The position numbers and the translations under genes are program-made. From positions 793,908-857,907 of the forward strand of contig OZ246408.1 in the NCBI GenBank assembly GCA_965231015.1: 64,000 bases of DNA, read 5' to 3'. This document shows, one piece after another, positions 6,222 to 59,826 of this stretch. A model generated the notes under the pieces. That model did no database searches. It was not told the origin of the DNA and worked only from the letters and a program-made list of their open reading frames with translations. The DNA is from an uncultured Gammaproteobacteria bacterium. GTDB taxonomy: Bacteria; Patescibacteriota; Patescibacteriia; UBA9934; CAZDDW01. Every line of letters begins with the position of its first letter. Position 1 is the first letter of the stretch.

Positions 6222-6875
6222 ATGAGCAAACCTGGAGGAAAACGGTATAAAAGGACACCGCTCGAGAAAATAAATGGACCTACTCCACAGCTTAAGCCGG
6301 TGGACATTATTTTGGTTCATCATAAACAAAGTTTGTTTCGTTTTTTTCTGCGCATGGTCACGGATTCTTACTGGGATCATGCCGCGCTGGTGATGTACCC
6401 CCGCAGTTCTAAAAACGAAATGCTCTACTCGGTAATTGTTGAGTCAATCCGGCCGGGGTTAGCCGGGCTGGTTGGCTCACGTGGTGTAGCTTTGCACCGA
6501 CTTGATAAATATTTCAACGAACCTCACCGATACGACGTGGGAATTGTCCGGGTTGAAGGTTTATCAAAAGAAGAGCGTGAGGAGGTTCGTTTGTTTATGC
6601 TAACCAATGTTGATGCCCCATACTGGCCGTGGCACTATATTGAAATCCTTCTTGCGGCCATGCTTCCACCTCTACGCTACTGGATTTTGCGTCGACAAAG
6701 ATTTAGCTGTTCTAGCTTGATTCAAAAAGCTTTCTTTGATGCATTGGGTGATAAATACAAATCACGTGTTGTTTTTAAAGAAGGGGTTTGGTCCCCAATT
6801 GAACTAGAAGAGCTGACAAGCCCGGGTGATATTGCTCGCAGTAAAAACATTAAATGGATCTACAATAAACATTAG
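6222..6875 (+). CDS. Putative permuted papain-like (YiiX/NlpC-P60-like, His-then-Cys order) hydrolase, paralog 1
   Basis: Conserved SYWDHAALV ... FSCSSLIQKAF pattern; paralogous to the next gene. Confidence 0.5.
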   Translation: MSKPGGKRYKRTPLEKINGPTPQLKPVDIILVHHKQSLFRFFLRMVTDSYWDHAALVMYPRSSKNEMLYSVIVESIRPGLAGLVGSRGVALHRLDKYFNEPHRYDVGIVRVEGLSKEEREEVRLFMLTNVDAPYWPWHYIEILLAAMLPPLRYWILRRQRFSCSSLIQKAFFDALGDKYKSRVVFKEGVWSPIELEELTSPGDIARSKNIKWIYNKH

Positions 6876-6876
6876 C

Positions 6877-7515
6877 ATGAAACCAGAAACCTTGAAGAAA
6901 AAATGGCCGGTTATTGAAGAACAGTTGGAAACAGCTGACATTTTGTTGTTTCATAAACGAAAGGGTCCAATAACAAAACGGATTCAGGAGGGTACAGGAA
7001 GTTATTGGAATCACATTGCCCTTATCTTTAAACCAAAATCCGAGATGCCAATCGGAGGGCCACTCATTGTTGAAGCAGCCTACAGCGGTATTGAAATTCA
7101 TCAACTAAAAAAATACACTGACCGAACTTTGTTATATGACATTGGAGTGCGTCGTTTTCCAAACTTAACAGAAAAACAAAAACAAGACATTGTCTTGAAT
7201 TTTATTTTAAAAAACTTGGATCAACCGTACGACTACAGTCGATTGGTTGGTCTATTTCTGGCCCCTCTTTTGGTACGTATTTCTCCAAAAATCCTACTCA
7301 AGGCCACGGACTATTTTATTCATGAAAACGCTTTTTTGTGTTCCACCTTTGCCATGAAAGCTTTTCAGCAAATATCAGAAAAACAAAATAAGAGCAAATC
7401 CTTTACCCAACACTTGGGTGTTCAACCCAAGAAAAAACACCGCCAGGAACTTTTTGCACCTGCCGATATTGCTGATTCAGACATGTTTGAGTGGATCTTC
7501 AATGAAAAACATTAA
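6877..7515 (+). CDS. Putative permuted papain-like (YiiX-like) hydrolase, paralog 2
   Basis: SYWNHIALIF ... FLCSTFAMKAF; ATG at 6877 placed 1 nt after the paralog 1 stop (the track start at 6826 is an in-frame extension). Confidence 0.5.
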   Translation: MKPETLKKKWPVIEEQLETADILLFHKRKGPITKRIQEGTGSYWNHIALIFKPKSEMPIGGPLIVEAAYSGIEIHQLKKYTDRTLLYDIGVRRFPNLTEKQKQDIVLNFILKNLDQPYDYSRLVGLFLAPLLVRISPKILLKATDYFIHENAFLCSTFAMKAFQQISEKQNKSKSFTQHLGVQPKKKHRQELFAPADIADSDMFEWIFNEKH

Positions 7516-10175: not shown

Positions 10176-10592
10176 TTATAGCTCCACTAAATACTTACGC
10201 AAAAATTTCTCTATTCCGAGCACCACCTCATCTTTTAAAGTTGACGGGCTTGAGGCGACCCAAACAGCAAAATTGTAAAACTCAACCTCATCGACCTTGA
10301 TCCATTTTCCGTTTTTATACAAAAAGACCAAAAGTGTGGTCATGGCAAGACGTTTATTACCATTTTGAAACGGGTGATTCTTAACCATTAAATAAAATAA
10401 AATCGATGCCTTGCCAAGCAGACCCCGATAAACAACCCTTTTCTGAAAACGCTGAAATGGTACGGCCAAACATCCTTCGAGCACTCCGGCAAAACGAGTT
10501 CCAAAATCTGGAATGGGTTCATTGAAATTTAAAGCTTCCTTAGCAAAAGTATGTGCCACCTGTTCAACTTCAGCCAGGCTAATGGGTTTCAT
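10176..10592 (-). CDS. doc: Doc-family (Fic-fold) toxin
   Basis: Doc signature HPFQNGNKR (HxFx(D/N)GNKR); 138 aa; 1-nt gap to the upstream HTH gene. Confidence 0.85.
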   Translation of the reverse strand: MKPISLAEVEQVAHTFAKEALNFNEPIPDFGTRFAGVLEGCLAVPFQRFQKRVVYRGLLGKASILFYLMVKNHPFQNGNKRLAMTTLLVFLYKNGKWIKVDEVEFYNFAVWVASSPSTLKDEVVLGIEKFLRKYLVEL

Positions 10593-17627: not shown

Positions 17628-18049
17628 ATTTTTACTTTGGACAATATTACTTCCTGCAGAGCGAACATCTCTTCGGCTTCCTTTTTCTTAACATGATCAT
17701 AACCCATTAAATGCAGTACTCCGTGAACCAACAAGCGTAACACCTCTTCTCGAGCCCGCACACCCTGTTTTTTTGCCTGTTGTTGGGCAATCGGGTAGCA
17801 GATTAGCACCTCTCCAAGCACCCCGTCCTCGGCATGTGTGAATGACAAAACGTCGGTAGGCATATTTTTACCACGGTATGCCTGGTTTATCTTTTTGATT
17901 TCCGGCTTTGTTAAAAATGCTACAGATACCTGCCAATCATCGCTTTTGGGAAATAAATGCATTAAAATCCGACTAACCGAATTAAAGGAGCTTTTTGGTA
18001 CTCGTGCTCCTCCGCGGAGCTTTCCGTAATTCACATCAAACCTGATCAT
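17624..18049 (-). CDS. ybeY: rRNA maturation endoribonuclease YbeY
   Basis: Zinc motif HGVLHLMGYDH. Confidence 0.9.
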   Translation of the reverse strand: MIRFDVNYGKLRGGARVPKSSFNSVSRILMHLFPKSDDWQVSVAFLTKPEIKKINQAYRGKNMPTDVLSFTHAEDGVLGEVLICYPIAQQQAKKQGVRAREEVLRLLVHGVLHLMGYDHVKKKEAEEMFALQEVILSKVKI

Positions 18050-19095
18050 TACCTTATCACCATACTATTTAACATCATCTGAAAAGTTTGCAAATAATCA
18101 ACCGTGGTTTTATTACCAACGTTGTAGCTGATGATAAAAACCCGATCTCCATCATCAAGATAAGCGGTCAGCCTGTCCGGACTCATAATTCCGGACAACC
18201 CTTCTTTTGTTTCCACCATTAACAAATCGTCTACACTAGCCTGTAAGTCCTGGGCTAAAAACCAGTCTGTAATAGAGGTCTCTGTTGATTTGGCATTCAT
18301 TAAAACCTGGATTATCTCTCCTGATTCAGCCGTAAATACTACTTGCTCGGTGGGTCCGCCAATCGCACGCACGTTCCAAAGCGATGGATATGTCAGGGTA
18401 TAACTAAACGAAGCCTCATCAAACAAACGCACCAGTCCGGATTCAACCAGCGATGCCGGAGCGGTTCCGTTCGGGTTGTACCGATGAAAGACCTCGTTTC
18501 CGTCCAAGAAACCGTCTTCATCACTGTCCGGTAGGTTGGCCTTAGTTCCATACAACGTTTCCTCCACGTCAGTTAGTCCATCCGAATCTGAATCTGTTCC
18601 GGGAATTAAATCTTCAGCAAATGGACTGACTTGTTCATCCTCATCTTCAATCTCTTCAGGTTCATCCTCGTCCTCGATGTCAGAATCTTCATCATCAGCG
18701 GTTATATCATCAGTTACCGGGGGTTCATCGTCAGGTATTTCAATTTCCGGAACCGATTCTGGCTGTTGTAGGGTGTTTAAAACTATCAAAGCCGCGGCCA
18801 CAAACAAGGCAATCACAATTATCCCTATCACCACCAGCTTGACCGGGAAGCCTTTTTTCTTGGAAGGCTTGGAAGGCTTGGAAGGCTGAGAGGGCTTTGA
18901 AGGCTCTGGAGCTTTCGCAGCGGGAGGTGGCACCGGCTTTGGTTTTGCCGGCTCTTTTGGTTCAGTTCGTTTTACCGGCGTCTCATTGAGGGCAGTTCGT
19001 CGATACTTCTCTGGCATAGCCTGAATCAAGGGCTCGTTTTCTTTGGCCTTGTTTCCTGCTGGCTGTTCGATTTTTGTTTGGTCAGCCTTTGCCAT
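18049..19095 (-). CDS. Single-pass membrane protein: Pro/Lys-rich N-terminal cytoplasmic region, TM, acidic linker, two TSP3-type Ca-binding repeats (DSDSDGLTD, DSDEDGFLDGNE), conserved (F/N)xYxPNG motif, extra C-terminal domain
   Basis: Direct motif reading; paralog of the two upstream genes; shares 1 nt with the ybeY start. Confidence 0.7.
   Translation of the reverse strand: MAKADQTKIEQPAGNKAKENEPLIQAMPEKYRRTALNETPVKRTEPKEPAKPKPVPPPAAKAPEPSKPSQPSKPSKPSKKKGFPVKLVVIGIIVIALFVAAALIVLNTLQQPESVPEIEIPDDEPPVTDDITADDEDSDIEDEDEPEEIEDEDEQVSPFAEDLIPGTDSDSDGLTDVEETLYGTKANLPDSDEDGFLDGNEVFHRYNPNGTAPASLVESGLVRLFDEASFSYTLTYPSLWNVRAIGGPTEQVVFTAESGEIIQVLMNAKSTETSITDWFLAQDLQASVDDLLMVETKEGLSGIMSPDRLTAYLDDGDRVFIISYNVGNKTTVDYLQTFQMMLNSMVIR
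18859..18903. repeat. Intragenic 9-bp tandem repeat (CTTGGAAGG x3 perfect plus degenerate copies) encoding a PSKPS-rich tract
   Basis: Direct reading. Confidence 0.8.
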
Positions 19096-19097
19096 AA

Positions 19098-19787
19098 TTA
19101 TTCAGTTGTGGGCAAATCAGTTAATTTTCCTGATCCATTCGGATCATAACCGTTGGACACCTCATCACCATCAAGATACGTATCTCCGTCCGTGTCAGGA
19201 TCAAGCGGATCTGTCTTCCACGTTTTTACCTCCTCATAATCACTTAACCCGTCAGCATCAGTATCACTAATGCGCGGACTAGTTCCATATTCTCCGGTCT
19301 CTTGAACATCACTTAATCCGTCACGGTCGGTATCAAATGAGTCTGACGGTTCTGGGGCTGGCTCTGGAACTTCTTCTTCCTCCTCTTCCACCACTACATC
19401 ATCATCCATCATGGTGTCTTCTTCCATAATTTCATTTGGATCCACTTGAATATCATCTGCTGGAGCACGGTTCAAAAGAAAATATGAAATCAGCCCGGCC
19501 GCCACAATTACTAAAACCACTATAACCACAATTAAAATGATCTTTAAGGTACGCCCTGTACCCTTGAGCGCGGAAGGTGGGGCTGATTTTGCTTCAGTCA
19601 ACGGTGGAGTCTGCATGGGTGTTGCCGGAGCCCCGGGTGATGGTTTGGGTTTTTCCGAACTCATGGCCGGCATAGGACCACTCGTTGGAGCCTCAGGTCG
19701 CGGTGGCGGAGTCGGGGCTTCACCCCCCTTGTCCGTGTCCGCAAAAATATCTTCAGGCTCATTCTTTTTTTTCACGTCATCAAACAT
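19098..19787 (-). CDS. Single-pass membrane protein with Pro-rich N-terminus, acidic linker, three TSP3-type Ca-binding repeats and C-terminal NGYDPNGSGKL motif
   Basis: DTDRDGLSD, DTDADGLSDYEE, DPDTDGDTYLDGDE repeats. Confidence 0.7.
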   Translation of the reverse strand: MFDDVKKKNEPEDIFADTDKGGEAPTPPPRPEAPTSGPMPAMSSEKPKPSPGAPATPMQTPPLTEAKSAPPSALKGTGRTLKIILIVVIVVLVIVAAGLISYFLLNRAPADDIQVDPNEIMEEDTMMDDDVVVEEEEEEVPEPAPEPSDSFDTDRDGLSDVQETGEYGTSPRISDTDADGLSDYEEVKTWKTDPLDPDTDGDTYLDGDEVSNGYDPNGSGKLTDLPTTE

Positions 19788-19818
19788 AAAAAATATTCAA
19801 TTTACATTTTTACAATTT

Positions 19819-20808
19819 TCAATTTAAGGTACCTGAACCGACCGGGTCATATCCAGAGTTAACCTCATCACCGTCCGCATATCCATCCCCGTCTGTATCT
19901 ACGACAAGCGGAGAACTGCCATATACTTCTACCTCTTCCCCGTCAGTCAAGCCGTCACCATCGGTATCCGGATTGAACGGATCTGTATCAAGATCCAATT
20001 CTTCCCCATCCATTAAACCGTCTCCGTCAAGATCAGGATTAGTATCGTCCATGCCAAGTTCAGCCTCCCGGTCACTACTAACCCCGTCTAAATCAAGATC
20101 AGCTGGACCCACGCGATCGTAACAACCCTCAATCAATTCTTCCGGTAAAACATCACACAAACTTGGGTCACGCACCGTGATAGCGTTTTGGATCGTGATT
20201 TCAGCTTTGCAATAACTTTCATTGACACCGTTCTCTGCACACGTTCCTGCGCGCATGATGGTTGGTAAAATTTGAGCCTGGCAAGAGGCCACCCATTCCG
20301 GATCAGTTAATTCTTCCTCACACCGGGCGTAATCTTTTTCTGCCACAATAAGTGGTAATAAAATGTGATCATAACAGGCCTCACGAGTTTCTTTATCAGT
20401 AATTGCATCGCAGTCTTCCGGATTACCCTTTTCCCGAGCCACCGTTTCCACACAGGCCACAAATGATTCTCCTTCTAGCATTTCACACACAGCGAGTGCC
20501 GAGGTCTTGGAAGCCTCCCGAGTAATAGTTCGCGCCTCACAAGCGGCCGGATCTTTTGCTTCAGCACATTCAGACAACTGACCGGCTAATCGTTTTTCAG
20601 TTTCTATTAAAGTTTGTTCATTCATCTGTCGCTCGTCAATATTGTGCGAGATGTTTCGTACAATAACCACTGCCACAATGATAATAATGACAGCCAAAAG
20701 AACCGAGCCGATGATAATAGCAATGGTTCGAACCGAAAGACCTCCGGATGGTTCCTGTCCTTCACCTTCCGGAACATACTCGTAAAGTTGTGGTTCTTGT
20801 TCAGCCAT
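19819..20808 (-). CDS. Single-pass membrane protein with Cys-rich central region, four TSP3-type repeats and C-terminal [12 protein letters not shown] motif
   Basis: [36 protein letters not shown] repeats; about 18 Cys in the middle section. Confidence 0.7.
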
Positions 20809-20811
20809 ACT

Positions 20812-23800
20812 TTAGAACGGACAGTAATTCATTTCAATATTTGTTAGATTCACGGTTCCCGTGCCTGGGAAACTAATTCTAAACGGCACAGTAAACTCTT
20901 CGTCTGATTCCGGACACTCGAAACCGATTGGGAATAGCAACGGCTGACTATTCCCTTCGTTCATAGTTCCGCTTGAAGTTCCGGCATCAGTGGTATAAGT
21001 GATATGTTTTCCAATAATGGATTCCACAATAGCCTCGTACATATCACGTAAATCTTCGGCGGTTTCACTTGAATAAGCATATTCGATTCCATTGTTTGAA
21101 GGTGAACAATTATCCGCATCAGAAATATCATCCGGTTCATCTCCTGAACAAACATCCGGCATAATTCCGGCTCGTTCACAAACATCACTCGACCAGTGGG
21201 CCATATAACCCTTAAGACTGCTTGATCCGGTCAGGGCAGCAGTATACAAATCCAAAGTTCCGGTTTGCCCCTCACAATCGCGTTTCAAACGCCGAGCCCA
21301 TTCGTCTACCGTGTTTTCACCATCTCCGGCTGTCGGGCTACCATCACTTAATAATACCACCACCTGAACCGTGTCTTCCGGAGCCGGATTTTCCAGCTCA
21401 TTATAAACCGCCTCCAGACCCTCTTCCGGGTAAGTGCTTCCGGATGCGCTGTAAGCATTTACTGTATTGATAAGTGAATATTCATCTTCAGAGGTAGACA
21501 AATTATAATCGATATTACCGGTACCAGGGCTACTAAAGCTAGCTAATCCAATTTCAATGGTTCCATCTTCAAAGGAATCAAACAGTTCTCCAATAGCATC
21601 AATGGTCGCTTCTTTAGCAACATCGAGCCTAGAATCTGAACCATCGAGTAATTCATTCATACTGGTTGACAAATCCATAATAAAGAACACTTGAACGTAT
21701 GGTGGAGTGACTCCAGCGAATGACACATCTGCAGTTAAACTGGATCCAACCCGACAGGCTGGGAAGTACATTAAAGCGGTGTCAGGTGAATCACCGGAGC
21801 CGAAACTATACAGGTCAACTGAATCTGTTTTTAGTGAACCCTCTTCTTCGGCCTCAACCTGGACGGACACACTGGAGAGTGAAAACGGACAACCGGACGA
21901 ACAGTTATCATTACACTCAGGAGCTACACAGGTACCAAGAGAAGTGGTCGGGGGAAACGAGAACGGATTCTGTCCACAATTATCATCGTAGTCGGCAATT
22001 CCAGCGTTGACATCACACGGAACTCCGTTGAAATCTTTTAACTCATCATCAATTGTTCTGTACCCACCATTACAATAACCGGCCGGAGCACACTCGTATA
22101 CTTTATCAGCTATTCCATCCCCATCGTCATCACACAAATCATTGTTATCACACAAATCCTGACAATCTAGAAAACTGTCACAGGCGCCGGAAATATCTCG
22201 CCGGTCAGGGTCTTCATCTTTTAAAATACAATAATTGATTGGCATATCCGTGCCATCACAAAACTCACTTCCGTTAACCTGATCGTCACCACAGTAACCA
22301 CCGCTCATGGTTTGGTACTGACAACTGGCCGTACAGTAGTTACAGCTTCCGCCGTACGGCGCTTCACACGGCACGGCGTTCCCGGCACCCCAGTCACAGG
22401 CTTCAATTCCATCATAACGCTTACCGTCTCCACAAACATTAAACAAGCAGGAAGTAGTGCACTCATCATTGTTATCATCATTTCCATCATCACACTCCTC
22501 TGTTCCTTCTGTTACCCCGTTTCCACAATACCCAGTTCCAATACAGCTCTCACCACCAATTTCGTCCCAACCACCCACAAAATGGCTTGAGTCAGCCTCT
22601 GGCCAAAAACAACCTGTACCAGCAGCGATGTCAGAGTCACACACACGGGTACGCATAGTTTCAAATTCAAAAGTTGAGCATGTGCCATTGGCACATTCTC
22701 CGTCCGTCTGACACGGCTTACCAATTTCGTCTCCGGTATCACACAACTGTGAAGATTCACAGGCTTCATAACCACTGACATTACCACACGTTCCACCCTC
22801 ACAATCATCATCAATTTCACATGGCTCTCCCTCAAGTGACCCTGACGAACAAATCGCGCCGTCCCAAGTCTCTGACTCACCATCACACTCTTCTGATCCG
22901 TTTACTACTCCATCGCCACAGCTTGGTGGATCTCCGGCACAATTAAAGGCACAGCCCTCATCTGGGTCGTATGAATAAATTCCGTTTACGTACTGACAAC
23001 TATTGGCCACGGCCCAAGCACCACTCGTACGAAAATCTTCGTTGTAACCACAGTCACACACTTCACTTCCGGCCAAAGTTCCGTCTCCACAAAAAATTGC
23101 TCCATCAACGTCACAGTCGAGTCCACAATATCCGTACTGACCATTGAAAGCTCCATCATCACACTCTTCTCCATCATCAACAACTCCGTTTCCACAAAGG
23201 TATGGAGTACAAGACGAAGCAGAGTCAGCCGCTTCTTGATATGCGGAACAGTCTGCACTACCACTTACAGCACAGTTTCCACTGTAACAACAAGTGACGG
23301 TTTTTTGACCTTCTATATATGTACAGGTTCCTCCTCCGCAATCAATTGAGTCATTACACGGGTCACCGTTTGAACAAACCCCACTGGCACACTCACCATC
23401 TGCTCCACAGGTGGCAACTACGTCTCCGGCCGGATCACAAACGGTTCCATAATAACTTGATTCAACATCATTAAAACAGATATATACTTCACCCGGATCA
23501 CAATCCACGGTTTGTGTGTCTCCAATTTCACAGGTCTCATTTTCACCCACCACTCCATCGCCACACTCTTCGGAAAGACCAAGTTCGGTTCCATCACAGA
23601 AAAGAGAAGTAGTAAATCCATCCGGATTAGATTCAGACGCATTACCAACGGTAATTTCAGCCCAATCTGTGGTGTCCTGGTCTAGATCATAAGCCCAAGG
23701 AGCGCCATTATATTCTAAATCAACAAACAACTCGTAAGCTTCCCCGGCTATGGAGCGGAAGCCATAGACATGTGAGCCTTCATTGCAAACAAACTGCGAA

Positions 23801-26800
23801 GCGTCCCCGTTCCAACAACTGGTTTCATCATAGCCCTCCGGACAATCGGCTAAATTATTAAGTGGGTCCGTTGGCAAAGCGGCACCCAAATTATTTCCCA
23901 GCTGAGCCTGCCAACTTGGCCAAGCACTATAACTGCGGGAACGTAAAAAACTTCCCACTTGCAATTCCGGTACGGTCTGCACACAAGTTTCACCCCCCGG
24001 ACAGTTATCGTCCACAAAACAGGCCATGGTTTTTGTCACTGAACAACGGCTATTGGTGCTACCGTAGGTATCAATCTGTCCGTACATGCTGCGCAAATCT
24101 GACAAGCGTATAGTGTCACGCTGCAACATTTGTTTTTGTGCTCCACAAACCGCATCGGCTCCGTACTCAAAACACTCGGCGTCATAACTACATTCAGCTA
24201 ACTGTAAACCGTCCGTAGCATTATCAGTATCGATCGGGTTTGCGTAGGCGTCGGTTTCATAACAAAACTCATCATCAAGCAAAACATCATTGGCATTGAA
24301 TGCCCAGCTATCAAGCACTTGCTCAAACACTTCCAAAGTTTCATCCTCTGCCCCTTCATTGTAGGCAATGGCATAAATATTAGAGTAAATGTCCCCGGTC
24401 TGATTGGCCGCATTAACATAAACCGTACGACCGTCCTGAACCGCTTCGTAACCATCCACATCATCGGTTGAAGAATAAGATCCGTCAAAGTTGGCATCGT
24501 ACCAATCACCTGGCGAGTAATAATCCTCGTTGCCAGCAATCCTGACACCAACCGCATCGGTGTAATCATCCCCATCAATCATAAACAGTAACTCACGGAA
24601 TACTCCGGAAGTGGTTTGTGGATTTGGTGCCTCGACCACCCTCATGTTTGGTAGATCATCGCTCGTATCAGCCGCGTCTCCGGCGTCCCGACAATAATAG
24701 AAAGAGAAATTAGAATATGGGAACGGACTGCCAAGATCGGTTCGTACGGACGGACCAAAATCTCCAAGCCCCAGACCCTCAAAGGCGGTATCATATTCTT
24801 CAGTATCAGAAAAAGGGAACGTGCCCACTTGTGGCCATGGATTTTCACACAAGAAGACCATCTCTTCAACCGAACCACTGATTACCTCTCCGGTAGTGCT
24901 TGGATCGTTAAACGAGTCGGATGTCACTGTAGCAGAAGCCACAATATCCTCTTCACCGTTTTTAGATTCAGCAACCGCGTCATTGAGGTCAGTTGTCGCG
25001 GCCGGGTCAGATAAATTTAAAACTGATCCATCTCCGGTTATACCCCAGCTCCAGGTCCAATCATAATAACCGGCAATTGGCGTAATTTCTTCCCGAACGT
25101 TATTACGGATTGTATATGCCGCAGCTTCGAGGTCATGACTTTCAGCCGCTTCAGTAAAGAGTCCTGGACTTGAAGACTTGTCTTCCACTAACACGTCTTC
25201 AAGCTCACAAACCTCAGTTCCGGTCTTGAAACTTGAAGCTAAAAGTTGATTTGCCTCAAAACCATAAAGAGCGTCAGTGATAGTCGGTCGGATAGTGATG
25301 CCGTACTGTGTGGTTACTCCAATGTTGTAAGCAGCCTCGGTATTATCATCCTGCAAATCCTGATCACCTACCACCACCAACCGGTACAAAGAATTCTCTT
25401 CAAGTGGTTGTGAGTAGGTAAAAGTGACCTCGGTACTGCTTTCAGATAAATCATTAGACAGGGTGCCCTCCATGTAACAGACAACGGGATCCTGGGCATA
25501 CACCTCGCGACCGAACAAGCCAGCCACCTTATTAGCCACAAAACGCCAAGCCCGGACGTACCACGGACGATCACCTTCATGTAAAGCAACCAAACTTTCT
25601 TCATAACCGGACGGACAATCACCGGTTTCAAGATCAGCGTCAGGCTGTGCTTCACCGTCCACCAACACTCCTGAACCAAGATAAATTAAGAAAATGTTGT
25701 CCACGGTTTCATTACCAACCTGGACGCGGAAAGACTCAGTATCCATTAAGGAATCAAACTCAGCACTAACCGAGGCGTTACGACACACGTCTTCCCGAGC
25801 ATCTGGAGCAAAAGTGGCGGTTGGTCGATCAGCACAACAACCACCAAAACCACAACCGATCGTAGTATAAGTCGCGACGCCACAATCAAGATCTTCCTCA
25901 CAAGAACAATTGACACCAACTTCAGCTTCTCCGGTAGCTCCGGTGCCGGTTTGACTGTCCGTTCCTTCAGCTCGCAGATCCGTCATGATTGGATTTTCAT
26001 CCAAGACAACCGACGCTTCGATCGCCCCCTCAGATATTTCAGCCACCTGGAACGGATCAATTAAACCGTCCCCGCCGGCCAAAGCGGCTTCACATTCTTC
26101 ACCTGTTCCATAATTGCCATCACCACAAAAAGATGGAGTTGAGTATTCGTGATTTGATCCCTCAAAAAGACCGTCATCAGAACAACCTTCATCAGCTGGA
26201 TCACACTCACCGCTCTCATTCAAACACCGCGAACTGCAACCATCTCCATTCGTTCCATTTCCATCATCACAGTCTTCCCCGTCCTCCCGAGTGCCGTTAC
26301 CACAGACAGCTGTAATTTCGGTTGCATCAAGCGAACCCTCATTTAAACAAATATTGGAACAACCGTCTCCGGAACTATTATTTCCATCATCACACTCCTC
26401 ACCCCCTATAGCATCATTGTGCAAAATAATTCCGTCTCCACAAACTGTGCCAGCGTAACCTGAACCCTCGTTTGTACAAACACTGGAACATCCGTCTAAA
26501 TCATCATTGTTGCCGTCATCACATTCTTCAAAACCATCCATTGATCCGTTTCCGCAAGTTCCGCCATCAGCCACAGCGGCAGTTCCCTCGGTCGTACAGG
26601 TAGCACTACAACCGTCTCCGTCCAGTGGTAAACCAGGGCCGTCATCACAGTCTTCACCAAATTCTTCTACTCCGTTACCGCAAACCGATACTCCGTAATC
26701 ACTTCCCTCGTTCAAACAAAGGCTGGAACATCCGTCCGGAAGTTCACGAGTGGTATCAAGGTTTGCTGGGGTAAAGAAAGCAATCTCGTAATTGTCTGGA

Positions 26801-29800
26801 ACCGTATTATCAATCTCCCAGTTCCAAGCATAGTCATACGCGTCAAGCCGTTGACCGGATGGTGAACACTCGTCCGGTCCGCCGTAAGCAGTGGCTTCGT
26901 AGGCTTGTTGAGCCCCGATTCGATCCAATACTTCACGTTCAGGATTTACTTCAACACGTTCAATACCACACGGAGCAGAATCGGCTTTAGTTTTAAAAAT
27001 CCACTCTTCATCTCCGGAAAGCCCGGTACCACTAAGACTCAACACCCCTTCTACCTGATCAGTTGTTGATGGATCATCACCGGAAATCCGCACCAAATAG
27101 TAAGTATCTTCTTCCAAATCACTTGGCGGACTCAAAGAGATTGACCAATCCCCGGCGTTGTAATTCAGTGTTCCGCCCACCACTTCCGTAGTTCCCAAAT
27201 TACAAAGCGCGTCGGAACACTCATACAGCCGAACATTGCCGTTGAAGCTGGACGAATCCATATCCAAATTAAAGGTCGCGCCAACCACAGCGTTGACACA
27301 AGCCTCTTCACACTCAGGCCATCGGTCTTCTACCCGAGGATCTTCAAAATTGACCTGAATGTCAGAGCTATCTCGTAAATTTTCATCCGTGATCTCGGCA
27401 GTGAGCTCAACCACATGACCGGGTTCAGTTTCAGATTCTGCCTCAACATTATAGGTATCAAAATCAAGCGAGACTAAATCAATAATGTCATCCCAGTCAG
27501 TGTTACCTGTATGCTCAGCATACCAGGTCCACACATCTCCCGGGGTATACAACACCTGACATCCTCCGGCTCCGATTGCGGAAGCATCAAAGTCGCTGTT
27601 TTCTTCAACGAAGGTGTAACTCTTTTCCGGAGGCAACAATAGCACACTCTCTATTTCACAGTCTGAGGTATCAGTCCTGGTCTGAAACTGCCACTCGTAA
27701 TCCGTTTCTAAGGGTTCTCCATCAGGACTTGTAATGCCTCCGATTCCACCAACGAGCGTCACCTGGTACCAAGTACTTGGATCAAAGACGGTACCGGCCG
27801 GCGATGAAATCCACTGGAAAGTGGTGTCAAACTTATCATCAAATTCTCCGTCAACAGTTTCTAAATCAGAACAAGGATCATCCGGATCCAGCCCGACACA
27901 TTTTTCTACAATGACGGTGCTCGTGGTGATACTTGCAAGCTCCACTCCGGGATCAGTTTCAAAAGAACCCTGCACCATTGAATTTACACAAACTTCCTCA
28001 CCGTTCGGCCAGGCTGTGTATGGCGTTGGGCTAATCCAATCATCAGAACATTCAACAATGAGTTGTGGAGCGTCCGGAATTTCTCCGGTAGAAAAACGCC
28101 AAAGGTATTCTGATTCCGGGATAGTTTCACTTGGACAAGTGGCTCGACACGCTCCATCATCACAACAAGTTTCACCTTGTGCGCACTCCGCTCCCCCATC
28201 AAGACAACTAGCCACTTCAAAATTAATCGTGTTTGAGGCAGTACCACCATTATCATAAAGTGTGACCGGTCCGGTGGTAGCTCCGGAAGGCACTTCTACT
28301 CGAACCTGTTCGCCATCACCTCCCCAATAATCAATGTTGGTTACGGCTACCCCATCATAAAAATCAACCGAGCCCTGCACGCTTCCAAACCGTTCACCAT
28401 AAAGATCAACCAACAGGCCCTCCGGACCGTTAGTCGGATCAATGGCACAAATGCTTGGCCCCGGACTGCCACTTGTTACCGTAAACTCGGCCTCATTACT
28501 TTCAGCACCATCATCACGCTCAATCCAAATTGCGGCTGAGCCTCCATCAGCCCATTCCGGTACCTTCATTATAATATTGTCATCCGCCCACCAATTGCTG
28601 GCACAGGCGTCTGGAAAATCAACATCAGCAACATCTGTTGCTCCGGTGGAATCCCTAAACCAAACAATGCCACCCGGCGGATCGTCGTCAAAATTTTCTC
28701 CGTAAATTGTTACGTATTGTCCAATAGGTCCGGTGTCTCCATAGTCTTCACAGGCACCAAAATTACATGGCGTATCATCACCTATTGTACAACCGGTCAC
28801 TGTTGGATCATTGGAACAATAATTTGGTACGTCCAAAGTACAGGTTCCAGCACAATCACTGTCAGCACTACAAGCTAAATCCGTGTTGTCGGCACAATAA
28901 TCAAGACCGGAATCAACATAACTGATGACCGGAGTCTCTTGTTCCGTCTCTGAGCTAACCGTAAACTGAACCGTGTTTGAACCATTCCCTTCTACAAAAA
29001 CCTGAACCTGATAATTACGAGCTGATACTTGAGGAACCGGGAAGCTAATACTTTCATCATTCCAATTTTGATACTCACTTGGTTCGTATCCGGTATTTCC
29101 GTAAAGAAGGTAAAGATTGTCCTCGGTCGTACCGAAATTTTTACCCGTGGCTACCACAATATCGTCCGGCAAACCACTTTCCGGATTAACGTCACACATA
29201 CTTGGTCGCACAGTACCATCTTCCGTGAAATCAATAATGACTGGGCCACGGTCATAATCATCGGTTCGGTCAGACAAAGGACCGTCAGCTTCAGCCGGCT
29301 CAGTCACAATTATGATCGGCCCGTCAACAAACCCGTTTGGTACCTCTACCACCACCTGAGTGCTGGTCCACGGATCAGCACAGTCAGCCACTAATGCCTG
29401 TACGTCATCATCATCTCCTTCTTCATCACCGTCCCCGTCCGTATCCGCTCCTAAAAACCAAACTTCTCCTTCTGCGTCATTAAAATATTCTCCTGAAATT
29501 GTAATGTAGTTTCCTGAGGTACCCTGGGTTGGTGAAACATAAGTTATTTCCGGATACCCAACACAAGTTCCCTCCTCACAAATTCCACTGGCACAATCAC
29601 CGTTTTCCGTACAAGATTCACCATCACAAGATAGACAATCATCTCCACCACAATCTACTCCGCTTTCGTCTTCGTCCTGCACACCGTTGGTACAGTGAGC
29701 AACCAAAGCGCTCACTGTAATGGAATCCGATAAAGTAGAGCGGCCGGAACAGTCATAGGCACGCGTACTCAAATTGTGTGAACCAAGAGAGGGCTCCGTC

Positions 29801-30798
29801 CAGTTGGCACTGTAGAGATCTGGCTCGCCAAGATTCAAAACCACTCCGTTGTCTTCAAATGAACTGTCAACGTAAAACTTAACCCGGTTGATTCCACCGT
29901 CGTCTGTGGCAATTGATTGCATAAGTGCCAGTTCTCCTACCGGAACTGAACCCCCATCATCCGGGTACGTCATCTCAACGGATGGGTCAGAGGTATCAAT
30001 TAAGTCCCCGGTGGTAAAAGTTGATTGACAGTCTTCACCCGGTGAACCACAGGTAATTAGCTCGCCACCGGTTTCTTTTAGACCGGCTCCGATTTGAACC
30101 GTGTAAGTAGTATTGGCATCAAAACAAAATTCAGCAGGGTCTTCCGGACAAACCGCTGACGGGGTAAACATAACCTCATCATCTTCAGTGTCAAAAGTTC
30201 CATCCACCGGATCACCAAGCGGATCCTGAATCTGGATGTTGCTGGCAATCGTAGAGGTGTCAACAGAATTATTAAATAAAATAGTGACCACTACATTTTT
30301 ATTTGGTAGATCACCGGTAGCACAACCATAACTCTCAATAATAAATTCATCATAAATCGGTGGGTTATCACCCGGATCCCAAGGGTCATCCCCCTCCTCC
30401 CCGGTTCCGGTGCCACCACCTACCGCGTCTACTAAAGAAGAAATAACAAATGTGGTAATGGCCCAGGCAGACATGATGATAACCATGCCAATTACAGCAT
30501 TCACCAACACCTTTTTAGCTTTACTGATTTTTTCCGCCTGACCACCTGAAGTCATCCACAAAAATCCGCCATAAATAATTAGGCCAAGCAAAACCACGCC
30601 GGCAAAACTGAGAGCGGTACGGATGAGTCGCGCCACTACAACCCGAATGTCAGCCTGAGCGAACCCGGCCTGTTCGGCAAACTGCTGAAACGCTGTTTCA
30701 TCAACCGGACCTTGAGCCAAGGCCTCGGTTCCAACAACCAAACCAAAGAGCGTAAGCCCGATGATCATGATCCAATAATTTTGGCGGATATATTTCAT
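20812..30798 (-). CDS. Giant (3328 aa) cell-surface protein: N-terminal pilin-like hydrophobic domain, Ig-like/IPT-TIG domains, myxococcus-type Cys-rich repeats (CGNG..ECDDGN), C-terminal von Willebrand factor A domain
   Basis: Uninterrupted 9987-nt ORF; IPT-like [22 protein letters not shown]; at least 4 CxxGxxExGExCDDGN repeats; vWA MIDAS DLSTSM...LLSDGSPT. Confidence 0.85.
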
Positions 30799-30799
30799 T

Positions 30800-32734
30800 T
30801 TATTCAGGTATTACACTACAGTCCCCTCCTCGACTTACCTCAGCGTCGCCACGACAACAACTCGGACTTGAGCTATCCACGTTACAATCCGGAGGAATCA
30901 CATCTTGAGCAGGATTAGCACTGCCCGGTCCATGCGCTGGGTAATAACAAATCTGGTACGAGCTTTTAATTCCGTGACTCAACCATGGTTCATAGTACCA
31001 AGTCAGCGTGTCAGTTGATTCTAAGAACAAGCCGTGGTCAATCACAACACGAGTGGCAGTTGGTTCAGCATCAGCCTGCGGTGGAGTTTCAGAATATCCC
31101 TCGTACAAGTTTTCCTTTTCAATTCGGTATGACAATTCATGGGTCGTAAAGTCACTTGATACCGGAACCAATCCAATGTTGTTGCTGTTCAAACTAGAAC
31201 TCATGAGCGTGACACCCGGCCCGGGTGGAGATACCCCGTCATCCTCAATAAACGTGGCAGATATTTCTGCGTCCAGTTCTACTTCTTCAGCCTCAAGATC
31301 AGGTCGCAATTCATAAATCGACGGGATCACATCATTGACTTCGTTCGTAGTTTCAAAGGCCCAAACATAGTTGTCCGTGGTTGGTCCATCAGCTGTACCG
31401 TCCAGGTTGGTAGAGGCTCCAACGTCCGGATTGTGGTTATTGTTTCCTCCATCAAGAGAATTGCCGGTCACATCCACCGCACCATCGTACGGATAGCCCA
31501 CAGCTTCCGGGGCACTATCCCCGACTGTCGCCGCAGTTACCGTAGTGTTGATCACAGACTCGCCCGGCAAACAGTAAATAGTGTCGCCACACGGATCCTC
31601 AGCACAAGCATCATCTGAAACAAACTCGATTGTCCGATATCCGTTCGAAATCGTCCAAGTTCCGGTCACGGTTCCTGAATTAAACGGATCCTGAAATTCA
31701 GCCAAAACATTTGAAAAGAAACTGTCTACGCCGTTATAGGTGCCGCTCACGGCAGTCGGATCCATAGCCTCGTTAAAATTGATCTGAATCACCACGTTGC
31801 GGTCTTTTTCTGTAGCGTGTCCAGGATAAACACTCTGCACGTATGGAGGCTCCAGATCAACCTCTGTCGAAACTTCAAAGGTCCATTCATAACCACCGTT
31901 AAAATTACCACTAAAAGCCTCGGTGCCATCTTCTTTTAAGATACCGTCCTGCAAACTAACCGTGTAGTTCATCGAATCAATCGCACTACCAAGGAGCTCA
32001 ACCGGATCAAAAACCCAGCTTAGATTATCTGCGGTTCGGTTCACAAGCACAGCTTCACTTGTTAAAGCCGATCCCTCCCCTTCGGAATTTGGATAAATTA
32101 AAACTAAACCATCGTTTAAAAAGTACGTATCATCAGTTTCGTCACCCGGAGTTCCGTTGTCGGAATATACACCATTGGTTAGTGAATCTAAGTTAATAGG
32201 TTCTTTAAAAGTGATGATTACCTTAGTGTTCCGTGGGATGTCATTGGCATTGCGTAGTGGCCAATGGTCTTGAATGATTCCCGCACCAAGCGGACCGGAA
32301 AGCGGTTCCACCCCGACCGGTGGTTCTGAACCAAACCCGCCAAAAATTCCTCCTTGACCGAGTAAGGCATTGAGAATAAATGAAACTATGCTATACGAAG
32401 CAAGTACAATAAAAGCGCCAATCACAGCATTGCGCATGATGAGCTTGGCCTTCTTGACCTTTTCAGCGTCTCCGGCTGAAGTCATCCAAAGGTAACCCGC
32501 GTACACAATGAGAGATAAAAATATTATGCCAATCAGACCGATGGCATAACGAATAATAATGGCCACAACCACACGAATATCAGTTTCAGGAAGACCGGCC
32601 GCTTGTCCAACCATTTCAAGTTGATCCTCTTGAGCCATGGCTTCCGGAGCAAAATAAAACAATAATCCCGCCACCACTACGACAAGGGTGGCGATGCAAT
32701 ATGTTCGCCATCTATTTTGCACTGCTTCAAGCAT
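30800..32734 (-). CDS. 644-aa surface protein sharing the pilin-like N-terminal domain with the giant protein, Ig-like beta-rich body, Cys-rich C-terminus containing RGD
   Basis: N-terminus DIRVVVAxIIRxAI...YxGxLWMTSxGxxEKxKKAK alignable to the giant protein; 1-nt spacing to the giant gene. Confidence 0.8.
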   Translation of the reverse strand: MLEAVQNRWRTYCIATLVVVVAGLLFYFAPEAMAQEDQLEMVGQAAGLPETDIRVVVAIIIRYAIGLIGIIFLSLIVYAGYLWMTSAGDAEKVKKAKLIMRNAVIGAFIVLASYSIVSFILNALLGQGGIFGGFGSEPPVGVEPLSGPLGAGIIQDHWPLRNANDIPRNTKVIITFKEPINLDSLTNGVYSDNGTPGDETDDTYFLNDGLVLIYPNSEGEGSALTSEAVLVNRTADNLSWVFDPVELLGSAIDSMNYTVSLQDGILKEDGTEAFSGNFNGGYEWTFEVSTEVDLEPPYVQSVYPGHATEKDRNVVIQINFNEAMDPTAVSGTYNGVDSFFSNVLAEFQDPFNSGTVTGTWTISNGYRTIEFVSDDACAEDPCGDTIYCLPGESVINTTVTAATVGDSAPEAVGYPYDGAVDVTGNSLDGGNNNHNPDVGASTNLDGTADGPTTDNYVWAFETTNEVNDVIPSIYELRPDLEAEEVELDAEISATFIEDDGVSPPGPGVTLMSSSLNSNNIGLVPVSSDFTTHELSYRIEKENLYEGYSETPPQADAEPTATRVVIDHGLFLESTDTLTWYYEPWLSHGIKSSYQICYYPAHGPGSANPAQDVIPPDCNVDSSSPSCCRGDAEVSRGGDCSVIPE

Positions 32735-33021
32735 GAAGCGTTCTTAATTTACTAGCTTATTATACCTTAATTTAGTTGAGAAGCGAAGTGTGGATAAGGC
32801 TAAAGCAAGTGAGTTGAATCCAAACCATATATATTTAAGTCTAGACTTTTGCAACACGGTTTCAAAAAAGATACGGTCGGCCACTTTTTGCAACCACTTT
32901 AAGCATAAACTGGTTCCACTTTAGGGCCGGCCGGACCCTTTTTGGAACCACATAGAAATTACACAATCGTCTGAAATCGGTGTGTAATCAGATCCCTTGC
33001 CCTAATTTTAGCCAATTAGTA

Positions 33022-33051
33022 TTGACAAAAAGGACTAAATAATATCATAAT
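33022..33051 (+). promoter_or_regulatory. Sigma70-like promoter (TTGACA-N18-CATAAT) upstream of the 33115 gene
   Basis: -35 at 33022..33027, -10 at 33046..33051. Confidence 0.4.
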
Positions 33052-33114
33052 ATGTCTTCACTTCACTGATCTAGGTGGAGCGCACACTGACAACTTCCAG
33101 TTAGGGAAAAGGAA

Positions 33115-33405
33115 ATGGACTACCTGTTCTACGTCTTCACCTGTCTCTTTGTGATTCTAGGCACCACAGCAAAGGTCTGGGCAGATGTCTGGGGCGAAGG
33201 TGCCGAAGGTCAACACGGGGGTAATCTCGTAATTGTGCTCGGAGTTTCAATGGCTCTCACTGGCACTATCAACGGCGTGGTTCAAACGAAGACCGAGTAC
33301 ATCATCGCCTTCCCAATCTGTGTCGTCGCTCTTATGTTGAGCCTGGTGATCAACGTCGTCATCAAGAAAATGCGAACCCTTCACCTCAAGAGGAAAGCAT
33401 CATGA
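33115..33405 (+). CDS. Small membrane protein (96 aa) in a GC-rich island
   Basis: Intact ORF, 3 hydrophobic segments, local GC clearly above the window average. Confidence 0.5.
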   Translation: MDYLFYVFTCLFVILGTTAKVWADVWGEGAEGQHGGNLVIVLGVSMALTGTINGVVQTKTEYIIAFPICVVALMLSLVINVVIKKMRTLHLKRKAS

Positions 33406-33697
33406 CCAAGGCAGTCCGCTTCTACTGGGAAGAGATGGGATTCGGCCTTGTCCCCTGAGGCATCGGGCTGAGCCTGATGTTCGCTCTCACAGTGGTCATG
33501 CAGCTGGAGCTCGGACCTGTACGGCCCCTTTCGCCATCGCCTACGTGGCCGTTCTGATGTGGAGCGTCTTCGACACGGGTATCCTGTGTTCGGTCTTCCA
33601 TGATCGTGATCAAAAAGCCACCATGCTCATCACCGCCGCTCTTTTTCTCACCTTCATGTTCTTTTACACCTGGTCGCTGCACAGCCTCCCGTCGTAA
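33402..33697 (+). pseudogene. GC-rich stretch with a fragmented reading frame: an 18-codon ORF (ATGA-coupled to the upstream gene) ends at an in-frame TGA at 33456; a downstream membrane-protein-like frame (...APFAIAYVAVLMWSVFDTGILCSVFHDRDQKATMLITAALFLTFMFFYTWSLHSLPS*) lies in another frame
   Basis: Hand translation of all three frames; no single intact ORF of 60 aa or more. Confidence 0.3.
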
Positions 33698-33833
33698 GAC
33701 CAGGCGAGATCCGCCGCCCTCACCCCCCCCCGATCAACCACAAGATCGTCTCGGGTGTAGGCGGTCTTGTTTTTATTCTCCTATTCGATCGAATTAAAAA
33801 CCACTTGCTTGCTTCGTAAAATTAACAAGTACC

Positions 33834-33870
33834 ACTTTTTCGTACCTACGAACAAACACCGTACCCCCCC
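33834..33870. repeat. Palindromic-element family copy: ACTTTTTCGTACCTACGAACAAACA + CCGTACCCCCCC (25/25 identical core to 9966..9990)
   Basis: Direct reading. Confidence 0.75.
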
Positions 33871-33880
33871 TCCTTAACCA

Positions 33881-33904
33881 AAAAGACCGTGCTATTGCAC
33901 GGTC
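33881..33904 (-). terminator. Rho-independent terminator for yqeY (GACCGTGC-tatt-GCACGGTC with T4 on the minus strand)
   Basis: 8-bp perfect stem. Confidence 0.55.
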
Positions 33905-33926
33905 CTAAAACTTTATACTTTATACT

Positions 33927-34385
33927 TTATCCTTGATCATCCGAGCCCAGCTCCTCTTCTACAGCCTTTTTCACATCTCCACCATCAACCTTTCCTTTAA
34001 CCTTTCCCATGATTGCTCCCATAACTTTTCCCATATCCTGCTTACCTTGGGCCCCAACTTCGGCAATGGTTTCCTTCACGATCTTTTTAAGCTCCTCAAA
34101 ATCCATTTGCTTGGGGCTATACTTGGCTAAAAGCTCAATTTCCTCGCGAGCTTTAGCGGCTAAATCCTCTCTGGCTCCTTCTGTAAACGATTCTAAGGAG
34201 TCTTTGAGCTGTTTAACTTGAGACTTAACTACAGCTAAAACTTCTTCCTCTTCAAGGTCACGTTTAAGCTCAATCGCCTTATTTTTTAAGGCCGCCTGTA
34301 ACATTCGAAGCGTAGAAAGAGTCTGTTCATTCCGTTCTTTCATGGCTAGCTTAAGGTCGTCCTTGATTTGGTCGATTAAGGCCAT
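33927..34385 (-). CDS. yqeY: GatB/YqeY-domain protein
   Basis: YqeY-like helical protein; classic rpsU-yqeY linkage. Confidence 0.8.
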   Translation of the reverse strand: MALIDQIKDDLKLAMKERNEQTLSTLRMLQAALKNKAIELKRDLEEEEVLAVVKSQVKQLKDSLESFTEGAREDLAAKAREEIELLAKYSPKQMDFEELKKIVKETIAEVGAQGKQDMGKVMGAIMGKVKGKVDGGDVKKAVEEELGSDDQG

Positions 34386-58514: not shown

Positions 58515-58515
58515 A

Positions 58516-59805: not shown

Positions 59806-59826
59806 AAACAATAACTAGCGCTATTT

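Follow-up and report, generated by a model that had tools for sequence, protein, structure and literature searches.

Two adjacent genes on the minus strand of a 64,000-nucleotide stretch of DNA (contig OZ246408.1, positions 793,908 to 857,907; hereafter the window) encode proteins of 644 and 3328 amino acids (aa) that begin with the same pilin-like module and continue into large bodies predicted to lie outside the cell. The organism that carries this locus is Candidatus Uhrbacteria, an uncultured ultra-small bacterium of the GTDB class ABY1. Judged by its sequence, the module is, with good support, a genuine member of the patescibacterial family of VirB2-like pilins (Pfam PF18895, T4SS_pilin, for type IV secretion system [T4SS] pilin), and the gene pair constitutes a core cassette of Candidatus Uhrbacteria. 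The reading preferred here, for which the chances are judged to be about even, is that the two products are adhesins that are anchored by a pilin module and probably assemble together with short pilins.

Kinship between the two proteins is evident from their N-termini. When residues 1 to 140 were compared by BLASTP, the 644-aa protein and the larger protein (the giant) showed 41% identity and 62% positives over 124 aa (E 8e-30), which bears out the claim, made earlier from the letters of the DNA alone (the sequence-only reading), that both open reading frames (ORFs) have an N-terminal module in common. The module had been put at approximately 130 aa; it is real, but the shared region is larger, as the likeness continues through the first immunoglobulin (Ig)-like domain (Pfam Big_5; 31% identity over 309 aa, E 8e-28) and reaches approximately residues 280 to 300 of the giant. 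The motifs quoted at that time are also present in both proteins, as DIRVVVAIIIRYAI and YAGYLWMTSAGDAEKVKKAK in the 644-aa protein and as counterparts of 14 and 20 letters in the giant, although their spacing had been slightly simplified. Similarity that runs through the first Ig domain argues that the two genes, which are separated by 1 nt, are tandem paralogs with a common pilin module, linker, and first Ig domain. A hidden Markov model (HMM) built from the module found only these two copies in the window.

The suggestion that the module resembles the VirB2/TrbC pilins was supported by profile searches. Scanned alone, the N-terminal domains scored 31.3 bits (644-aa protein) and 36.7 bits (giant) on PF18895, both above the gathering cut-off of 26.6 bits, and significant similarity to a pilin family was thereby found for each. 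In scans of the whole proteins, the giant again exceeded the cut-off (29.6 bits) and the 644-aa protein fell just under it (24.6 bits). All 18 sequences in an alignment of the N-terminal domain matched PF18895, and 6 of these 18 close homologs also matched PF04956 (TrbC/VirB2; best E 3.2e-6), which ties the module indirectly to the TrbC/VirB2 family. Of the two Pfam families that had been named as candidates, T4SS_pilin was matched by the window modules themselves and TrbC/VirB2 by some of their homologs. The closest relatives of the module, sought in a set of 5.8 billion proteins, are stand-alone pilins of 96 to 186 aa with 37 to 60% identity, all of which match PF18895, and an exhaustive profile search with the module returned 85,511 cluster representatives at E up to 1e-3 and 33,749 at E up to 1e-10. 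The conserved motif residues of the giant's module are G78, M82, T83, G86, A94, and G104, while G69, G80, G88, and G106 of the 644-aa hairpin are invariant across orthologs. Among NCBIfam models, the best match of both modules was NF045849, the Mbov_0395 pilin-like conjugal transfer protein, with E values of 1e-7 and 1.7e-6 and coverage of the hairpin, at scores (27.6 and 31.5 bits) that lie under the 40-bit cut-off of that family.

Each protein contains three hydrophobic segments, a signal peptide followed by two helices around a basic loop, in agreement with the signal-anchor helix and two further helices described in the sequence-only reading. AlphaFold2 modeled the last two segments with confidence as a hairpin, the helices spanning residues 53 to 84 and 90 to 127 of the 644-aa protein and residues 51 to 82 and 88 to 127 of the giant; the predicted local distance difference test score (pLDDT) of the hairpin exceeded 90 in the full-length model. 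Both signal peptides are predicted to be cleaved after an A-x-A motif, and A34 and Q35 of the 644-aa protein are at least 90% conserved among orthologs. The hairpin loop contains five Lys and Arg residues versus two Asp and Glu residues in the 644-aa protein, and four versus one in the giant, and its flanks are acidic. By the positive-inside rule, there is good support for a topology in which the loop would be cytoplasmic and the mature N-terminus outside; with the hairpin in the membrane and its loop in the cytoplasm, the entire C-terminal body would be outside as well. The same membrane layout, with the loop inside and both ends outside, is found in F-pilin and the VirB2/TraA pilins, and the C-terminus is surface-exposed in F-pilin and VirB2 pili. 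A disordered linker of approximately 20 residues joins the hairpin to the body in the model.

No further transmembrane segment was found in either protein beyond these three hydrophobic segments. A class III type IV pilin leader (a G/FTLIE-type prepilin peptidase site) is absent from the first 60 residues of both proteins, on which ground their identity as pilins or pseudopilins of type IV pili or type II secretion systems was rejected. An LPxTG-like motif was not found anywhere in either protein, nor was a C-terminal hydrophobic segment, and identity as components of a sortase-assembled pilus was likewise rejected, although the giant has a von Willebrand factor A (VWA) domain.

The bodies that follow the linker are well supported, on sequence grounds, as apparently extracellular in character. 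The huge extracellular bodies envisaged in the sequence-only reading thus find backing in the topology indicated by the positive-inside rule, in the Ig-like, TIG, and VWA domains, and in an acidic, Cys-rich composition, which for the body of the giant amounts to 5.1% Cys, 19.8% Asp and Glu, and 2.9% Lys and Arg. AlphaFold2 modeled the body of the 644-aa protein as all-beta, with pLDDT mostly above 90, and Foldseek matched it to the Ig domains of L,D-transpeptidases, to the S-layer proteins SbsC and 7ptp, and to titin and cadherins; seven of its cysteines are invariant among orthologs. Pfam families matched by the 644-aa protein are Big_5 and T4SS_pilin, and those matched by the giant are T4SS_pilin, Big_5, Big_7, TIG, DUF4215, and VWA, the last of which is also matched by orthologs at three other loci (L001, L003, and L004). 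Pfam scans of both proteins found no SLH or other known wall-binding domain.

The pair is conserved throughout the lineage. At least 483 full-length orthologs of the 644-aa protein were found, with 38 to 60% identity, and those with an organism name belong almost entirely to Candidatus Uhrbacteria. In a scan of one genome per species, with an alignment of the 644-aa orthologs as the query, 80 loci were recovered; in 74 of them, a pilin-headed ORF of 570 to 710 aa is followed directly by a giant pilin-headed ORF in the same orientation, while the remaining six are fragmented or run out at or near the end of a contig. Complete giants (n = 37) have a median length of 3378 aa and a maximum of 3610 aa. 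The upstream genes yqeY, hisS, and lepB are kept in 71, 63, and 60 of the 80 loci, respectively, and the gene order of the cassette is lepB-hisS-yqeY-(~620 aa)-(~3400 aa)-TSP3 membrane proteins, homologs of the TSP3 proteins being found 3' of the giant in the 14 loci that reach beyond it. More distant full-length homologs of the giant occur among the best profile matches (P0156, 3354 aa; P0145, 3367 aa; P0115, 2263 aa), with 25 to 30% identity over more than 2000 aa.

Short pilins also occur at or near the cassette in relatives. An extra ORF lies between the two large genes in 7 of the 80 loci; it encodes a pilin of approximately 125 aa in four cases (L070, L071, L073, and L077), a product of 364 to 388 aa in two (L067 and L078), and a 67-aa fragment in one (L081). 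The intervening pilin of L071 scored 32.3 bits on PF18895, over the cut-off. In 25 of the 80 loci, a divergent pilin-like hairpin ORF, which scores under the PF18895 cut-off and is sometimes fused in frame to YqeY, is found just upstream of the pair. The window has neither type of extra pilin. In the Uhrbacteria assembly CALRBH01, the pair (L041) and an array of six genes for pilins of 122 to 197 aa (L090) are present on different contigs. The giant's module shows 47.7% identity to one pilin of this array (143 aa) and 49.5% identity to the module of its own ortholog in the same assembly. The occurrence of both the pair and an array in CALRBH01 overturned the idea, drawn from Table S3 of a published survey (PMC12102498), that Uhrbacteria have no short pilins besides the pair; the VirB2 rows of that survey give no protein lengths, and rows for fusion proteins cannot be told apart.

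Additional observations were made on the hairpins upstream of the pair and on the arrays. In many Uhrbacteria, yqeY encodes a product of approximately 250 aa in which the YqeY domain is followed by a hydrophobic segment with an A-x-A site and then by a divergent pilin-like hairpin; in other genomes, the upstream hairpin is a separate ORF of 80 to 130 aa, and the YqeY protein of the window (33927..34385) has 152 aa and no hairpin. Two short-pilin arrays, L090:7632-11791 (six genes) and L091:5241-10447 (eight genes), have common upstream neighbors, namely an NTP_transferase gene and then a gene for a solute-binding protein (SBP_bac_1/8) that adjoins the first pilin gene. No VirB4 gene was found within 10 kb of either array. 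Among the 150 best profile matches, 119 of the 146 newly returned proteins were, on re-scanning, single ORFs with 2 to 13 tandem pilin hairpins, where a first count of tandem pilin stretches per protein had given up to 17 (proteins P0017-P0162, e.g., P0020, 1775 aa). Seven of the tandem-hairpin proteins also have a non-pilin stretch of more than 200 aa, and one of 1369 aa (P0151) combines two pilin modules with approximately 1100 aa of other sequence. From their sequences, these ORFs would be candidate "poly-pilin" proteins or merged gene calls.

The mechanism proposed for the pair begins with the signal peptide, which would take each protein to the membrane and be cut after A-x-A, leaving an N-terminal Gln. 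The pilin hairpin would stay embedded in the cytoplasmic membrane, its Lys-rich loop facing the cytoplasm, and the C-terminal body would extend outside. This body would comprise Ig-like domains over approximately 500 aa for the 644-aa protein and, for the giant, approximately 3200 aa of Ig-like, TIG, and Cys-rich acidic repeat domains with a distal VWA. The bodies would serve as adhesin or envelope fibers, presumably attaching to a host cell or particle, and both proteins would join the short array pilins in a single pilin-based assembly as adhesin-bearing minor subunits, at its base or tip. Pointers to such co-assembly are that the module shows no drift from stand-alone pilins, that short pilins occur in or near the cassette in part of the lineage, that the pair and a short-pilin array occur together in CALRBH01, and that an Ig stalk with a distal VWA is the architecture of an adhesin-bearing minor subunit. 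A role of the hairpin beyond anchoring is somewhat favored over its opposite. In sequence, the module has remained among the short pilins that the lineage encodes in separate arrays.

Several observations weigh against the preferred reading. No filament of PF18895 proteins has been shown, and published reports refer to "predicted pilin subunits." A homopolymer would have difficulty accommodating subunits that each carry 500 to 3200 aa of body, and the conserved Gly and Ala residues could reflect packing within the hairpin alone. Neither window module matched PF04956 at E up to 1, and the module profile gave no matches to any PDB chain even at E up to 10, so that no solved conjugative pilin was recovered by sequence. 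An hhalign comparison with a small alignment of virB2 genes annotated on plasmids of Agrobacterium, Sinorhizobium, and Acetobacter placed the module in register over 55 columns, with GFLWMTSGG over GISWMFG of VirB2, at a probability of 4% and an E value of 0.0097; being in register yet not significant, it was not counted as support. The neighborhood in the window is one of housekeeping and cell division, with lepB, hisS, and yqeY upstream and ybeY, dagK, ftsA, and ftsZ downstream. The sequence-only reading had proposed a genome search for VirB4, VirB6, and VirD4 homologs; neither these nor VirB3 were found in the 64 kb of the window. Among 11 pair-carrying genomes matched to Table S1 of the published survey (PMC12102498), VirB4 was scored in five and not in six; all 11 are draft metagenome-assembled genomes (MAGs) of 0.75 to 1.44 Mb, and their incompleteness weakens the VirB4 absences.

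A real, though minority, possibility is that the hairpin was co-opted simply as a two-helix membrane anchor for constitutive envelope proteins that form an S-layer-like sheath or fibrils, with no extraction, polymerization, or link to a T4SS. Such a role would suit the core housekeeping site of the pair, which is occupied in essentially every species-level locus, as well as the failure to detect VirB4 in six of the 11 draft genomes, the likeness of the body to Ig domains of Big_5/SbsC-type S-layer proteins, and the fact that a PF18895 filament is yet to be seen. The very large bodies would also speak against dense polymer packing, and the first Ig domain would sit at the membrane surface, because the linker is only approximately 20 aa long. 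However, a module with 37 to 60% identity to stand-alone pilins is no degenerate anchor, and that of the giant is as near to an array pilin as to the module of its own ortholog. The short pilin genes inside (7 of 80 loci) or just upstream of (25 of 80) the cassette likewise point away from a mere anchor, and incomplete MAGs lessen the force of the missing VirB4 genes.

It is rather unlikely that the two proteins are T4SS pilus subunits in the strict sense, which would be drawn by VirB4/VirB3/VirB6-type extraction into a VirB2-like (MPF-FATA-like) pilus and would act as tip or minor pilins carrying the missing adhesin, a model that overlaps with the co-assembly reading. Membership in the pilin family and the presence of short-pilin arrays in the same genome are in its favor, and the distal VWA resembles the tip adhesins of other pilus types. 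Clusters of VirB3-VirB4-TrsD are indeed present at other sites in Uhrbacteria genomes, and a survey found no PrgB-like adhesin in Patescibacteria (PMC12102498). Nevertheless, no T4SS gene lies within 10 kb of the pair in the loci for which gene lists were inspected (L001-L005), VirB4 was scored in no more than 5 of the 11 genomes with the pair, and the core, syntenic character of the pair contrasts with the patchy occurrence of VirB4, which is recorded for 18 of 36 Uhrbacteria in one section of the table (PMC12102498).

A more elaborate version of the co-assembly reading is also improbable. In it, a monoderm envelope would bear a VirB2-type filament or membrane platform, and proteins of approximately 620 and 3400 aa would polymerize with short array pilins and decorate or cap the fiber as a host-attachment organelle. 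Because the pair is core and VirB4 is patchy, such an assembly might not need a canonical VirB4 machine. Finally, a chance or compositional resemblance, in which a signal peptide and generic hydrophobic helices yield a low-complexity Pfam artifact, could draw on weak matches of the modules to unrelated membrane families (E 1e-3 to 1), on fold searches that match thousands of helical hairpins and cannot discriminate this fold, and on the 4% hhalign probability, but it is effectively refuted by scores over a curated cut-off, the 33,749 representatives at E up to 1e-10, the specific conserved motif residues of the giant, the match of the two modules to each other at E 8e-30, and homologs that are annotated as pilins and located in pilin arrays.

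The pair can be compared with several known systems. VirB2-like pilins of PF18895 are widespread in Patescibacteria, of which they have lately come to be seen as a hallmark, and form arrays of 2 to 11 genes that are often near virB4, as surveyed by Quinonero-Coronel et al. 2025 (PMC12102498) and Wang et al. 2023 (PMC10633639), and a pilin array is essential in Ca. Southlakia epibionticum ML1, the one tractable species. The pair resembles these pilins in its family score, signal peptide, hairpin, basic loop, identity of up to 60%, and arrangement as a two-gene array. In contrast to published members, which are small stand-alone proteins of approximately 100 to 190 aa, its products have 644 and 3328 aa, and it resides in a housekeeping neighborhood whether or not VirB4 is detected. 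With the canonical VirB2/TrbC/TraA pilins (PF04956) of T-, P-, and F-pili, it has in common a leader, two hydrophobic helices, and a short basic loop, along with a "WM" at the end of helix 1 that stands in register with "SWMFG" in the non-significant hhalign alignment, whereas it lacks a PF04956 match, a match to a solved pilin, and T4SS neighbors. Furthermore, the head-to-tail cyclization of T- and P-pilins would be incompatible with a C-terminal body of 0.5 to 3.2 kaa (thousand aa). Mbov_0395 (NF045849), found on integrative and conjugative elements (ICEs) of Mycoplasma, is the best NCBIfam match of both modules, in keeping with the monoderm (MPF-FATA) origin that the 2025 survey proposes for the T4SS of Patescibacteria (PMC12102498); the scores of the pair are nevertheless sub-cut-off, and the Mycoplasma proteins are small (an 80-position model) and reside on mobile elements.

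Adhesin-bearing pilus subunits are known elsewhere and include FimH-type two-domain adhesins, type IV minor-pilin/adhesin complexes, and sortase tip adhesins with VWA domains (RrgA and SpaC). Like such subunits, the pair couples a pilin-type assembly module to a large, presumably adhesive body with an Ig-like stalk and a distal VWA, but the assembly modules are unrelated, and that of the pair is N-terminal and predicted to stay in the membrane, with neither an LPxTG motif nor a class III leader. Likeness to Big_5/SbsA-type S-layer proteins (SbsC, PDB 4uic; archaeal 7ptp) consists of the Big_5 domain, the Foldseek matches, an acidic composition, and a constitutive, core-genome character, while the anchor of the pair is a pilin hairpin and not a wall-binding domain or C-terminal transmembrane segment.

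Coordinates of the features discussed here are collected in Table 1. The three genes downstream of the giant follow it with successive gaps of 3, 31, and 2 nt. Of their products, those of 329 and 229 aa matched Pfam TSP3_bac repeats, which are of calcium-binding type, and that of 348 aa had no Pfam match; homologs of all three genes are present at three other loci (L061, L062, and L084). Since they lie directly after the giant and are conserved there in relatives, these acidic membrane proteins may be partners of the pilin-headed proteins. The LepB signal peptidase and LytR-CpsA-Psr neighbors were also considered as functional partners and set aside; their synteny is real, but evidence for a functional link did not go beyond a general envelope theme. 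Upstream of the pair, a terminator-like hairpin follows yqeY (33906-33883, minus strand), and a promoter scan of the spacer gave 24 sites versus 23.6 expected from shuffled sequence, so that no operon start was placed. The spacer also holds a plus-strand ORF for a hydrophobic protein of 96 aa (33115..33405) with no Pfam family, preceded by a promoter-like site (11 of 12 positions; 33022-33051) and followed, approximately 330 nt downstream, by a terminator-like hairpin (33740-33770).

Table 1. Positions of the pilin-headed pair, its domains, and adjoining features (window coordinates unless a locus is named)
Feature	Position	Strand	Basis
Gene, 644-aa pilin-headed Ig-like surface protein (stop codon included)	30800..32734	minus	ORF and translation
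Predicted Sec signal peptide, 644-aa protein (aa 1-34), A-M-A then Q35	32633..32734	minus	Hydrophobic segment 9-35, conservation
Predicted VirB2-like pilin hairpin, 644-aa protein (aa 51-127): helix, basic loop AGDAEKVKKAK, helix	32354..32584	minus	PF18895, AlphaFold2, conserved Gly
Predicted extracellular body, 644-aa protein (aa 147-644), tandem Ig-like beta domains and Cys-rich C-terminus	30803..32296	minus	AlphaFold2, Foldseek
Gene, 3328-aa pilin-headed giant surface protein	20812..30798	minus	ORF, Pfam/NCBIfam domains, full-length homologs
Predicted signal peptide, giant (aa 1-28), A-L-A then Q29	30715..30798	minus	Hydrophobic segment 8-29, A-x-A/Q motif
Predicted VirB2-like pilin hairpin, giant (aa 49-127)	30418..30654	minus	PF18895, AlphaFold2, array-pilin identity
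First Ig-like (Big_5) domain, giant (aa 170-263), after short acidic Gly-rich linker, common to 644-aa paralog	30010..30291	minus	Pfam
IPT/TIG domain, giant (aa 533-613)	28960..29202	minus	Pfam TIG, E 5e-20
Best-scoring Cys-rich acidic repeats, giant (~aa 1452-1530)	26209..26445	minus	PF13948 DUF4215; TIGR02232, 5 stretches
VWA domain near distal C-terminus, giant (aa 3050-3173)	21280..21651	minus	Pfam VWA, E 7e-9
Three downstream genes (329, 229, 348 aa), one hydrophobic segment each, C-terminal TSP3-type repeats or Asp-rich stretches	18049..20808	minus	Pfam, synteny
Spacer between yqeY and 644-aa gene, 1.2 kb, without pilin-like ORF	32735..33926		No pilin HMM match, no Rfam family
YqeY-hairpin fusions upstream of the pair in relatives	L021:9101-9862, L026:6449-7213, L046:3246-4049, L020:3721-4512		PF18895 18 bits, under cut-off

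The closest relative of the 644-aa protein, which is 94% identical, was found in Logan read-run assemblies, and the runs SRR7048224 and SRR7048221 hold the exact sequence. The next relatives are at most 60% identical, with 52 to 53% for the best species-representative genome, and the species of the window seems, from these sequence comparisons, to be without a close genome in the species-level collection. A number of third-party annotation (TPA) MAGs titled "uncultured Gammaproteobacteria bacterium" (L006, L007, L015, L021, and approximately 20 other loci) carry the Uhrbacteria-specific cassette and synteny, and these record titles look like mislabeled taxonomy. Elsewhere in the window, two adjacent class II Asp/Asn-type tRNA synthetase paralogs of 466 and 431 aa (57114..59811), two adjacent, overlapping Peptidase_C92 paralogs of 217 and 229 aa (6222..7515), a truncated-looking Fic ORF (10176..10592), and a type I restriction R-subunit-like gene (61693..63903) were observed.

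Fusion of a pilin module to large bodies seems to be undescribed, no description having been found in the searchable literature, while the PF18895 family and its presence in Patescibacteria were already known and Pfam matches to these large proteins are on record in databases. The 2025 survey reported no T4SS adhesin (PMC12102498). HMM-based counts of "VirB2 pilins" in Patescibacteria may include multi-kilodalton surface proteins such as these. With a pilin module covalently linked to Ig-like and VWA-bearing bodies, and with synteny kept across the lineage, the pair provides a concrete candidate for the missing adhesin and a good candidate for how Uhrbacteria hold adhesins on their surface.

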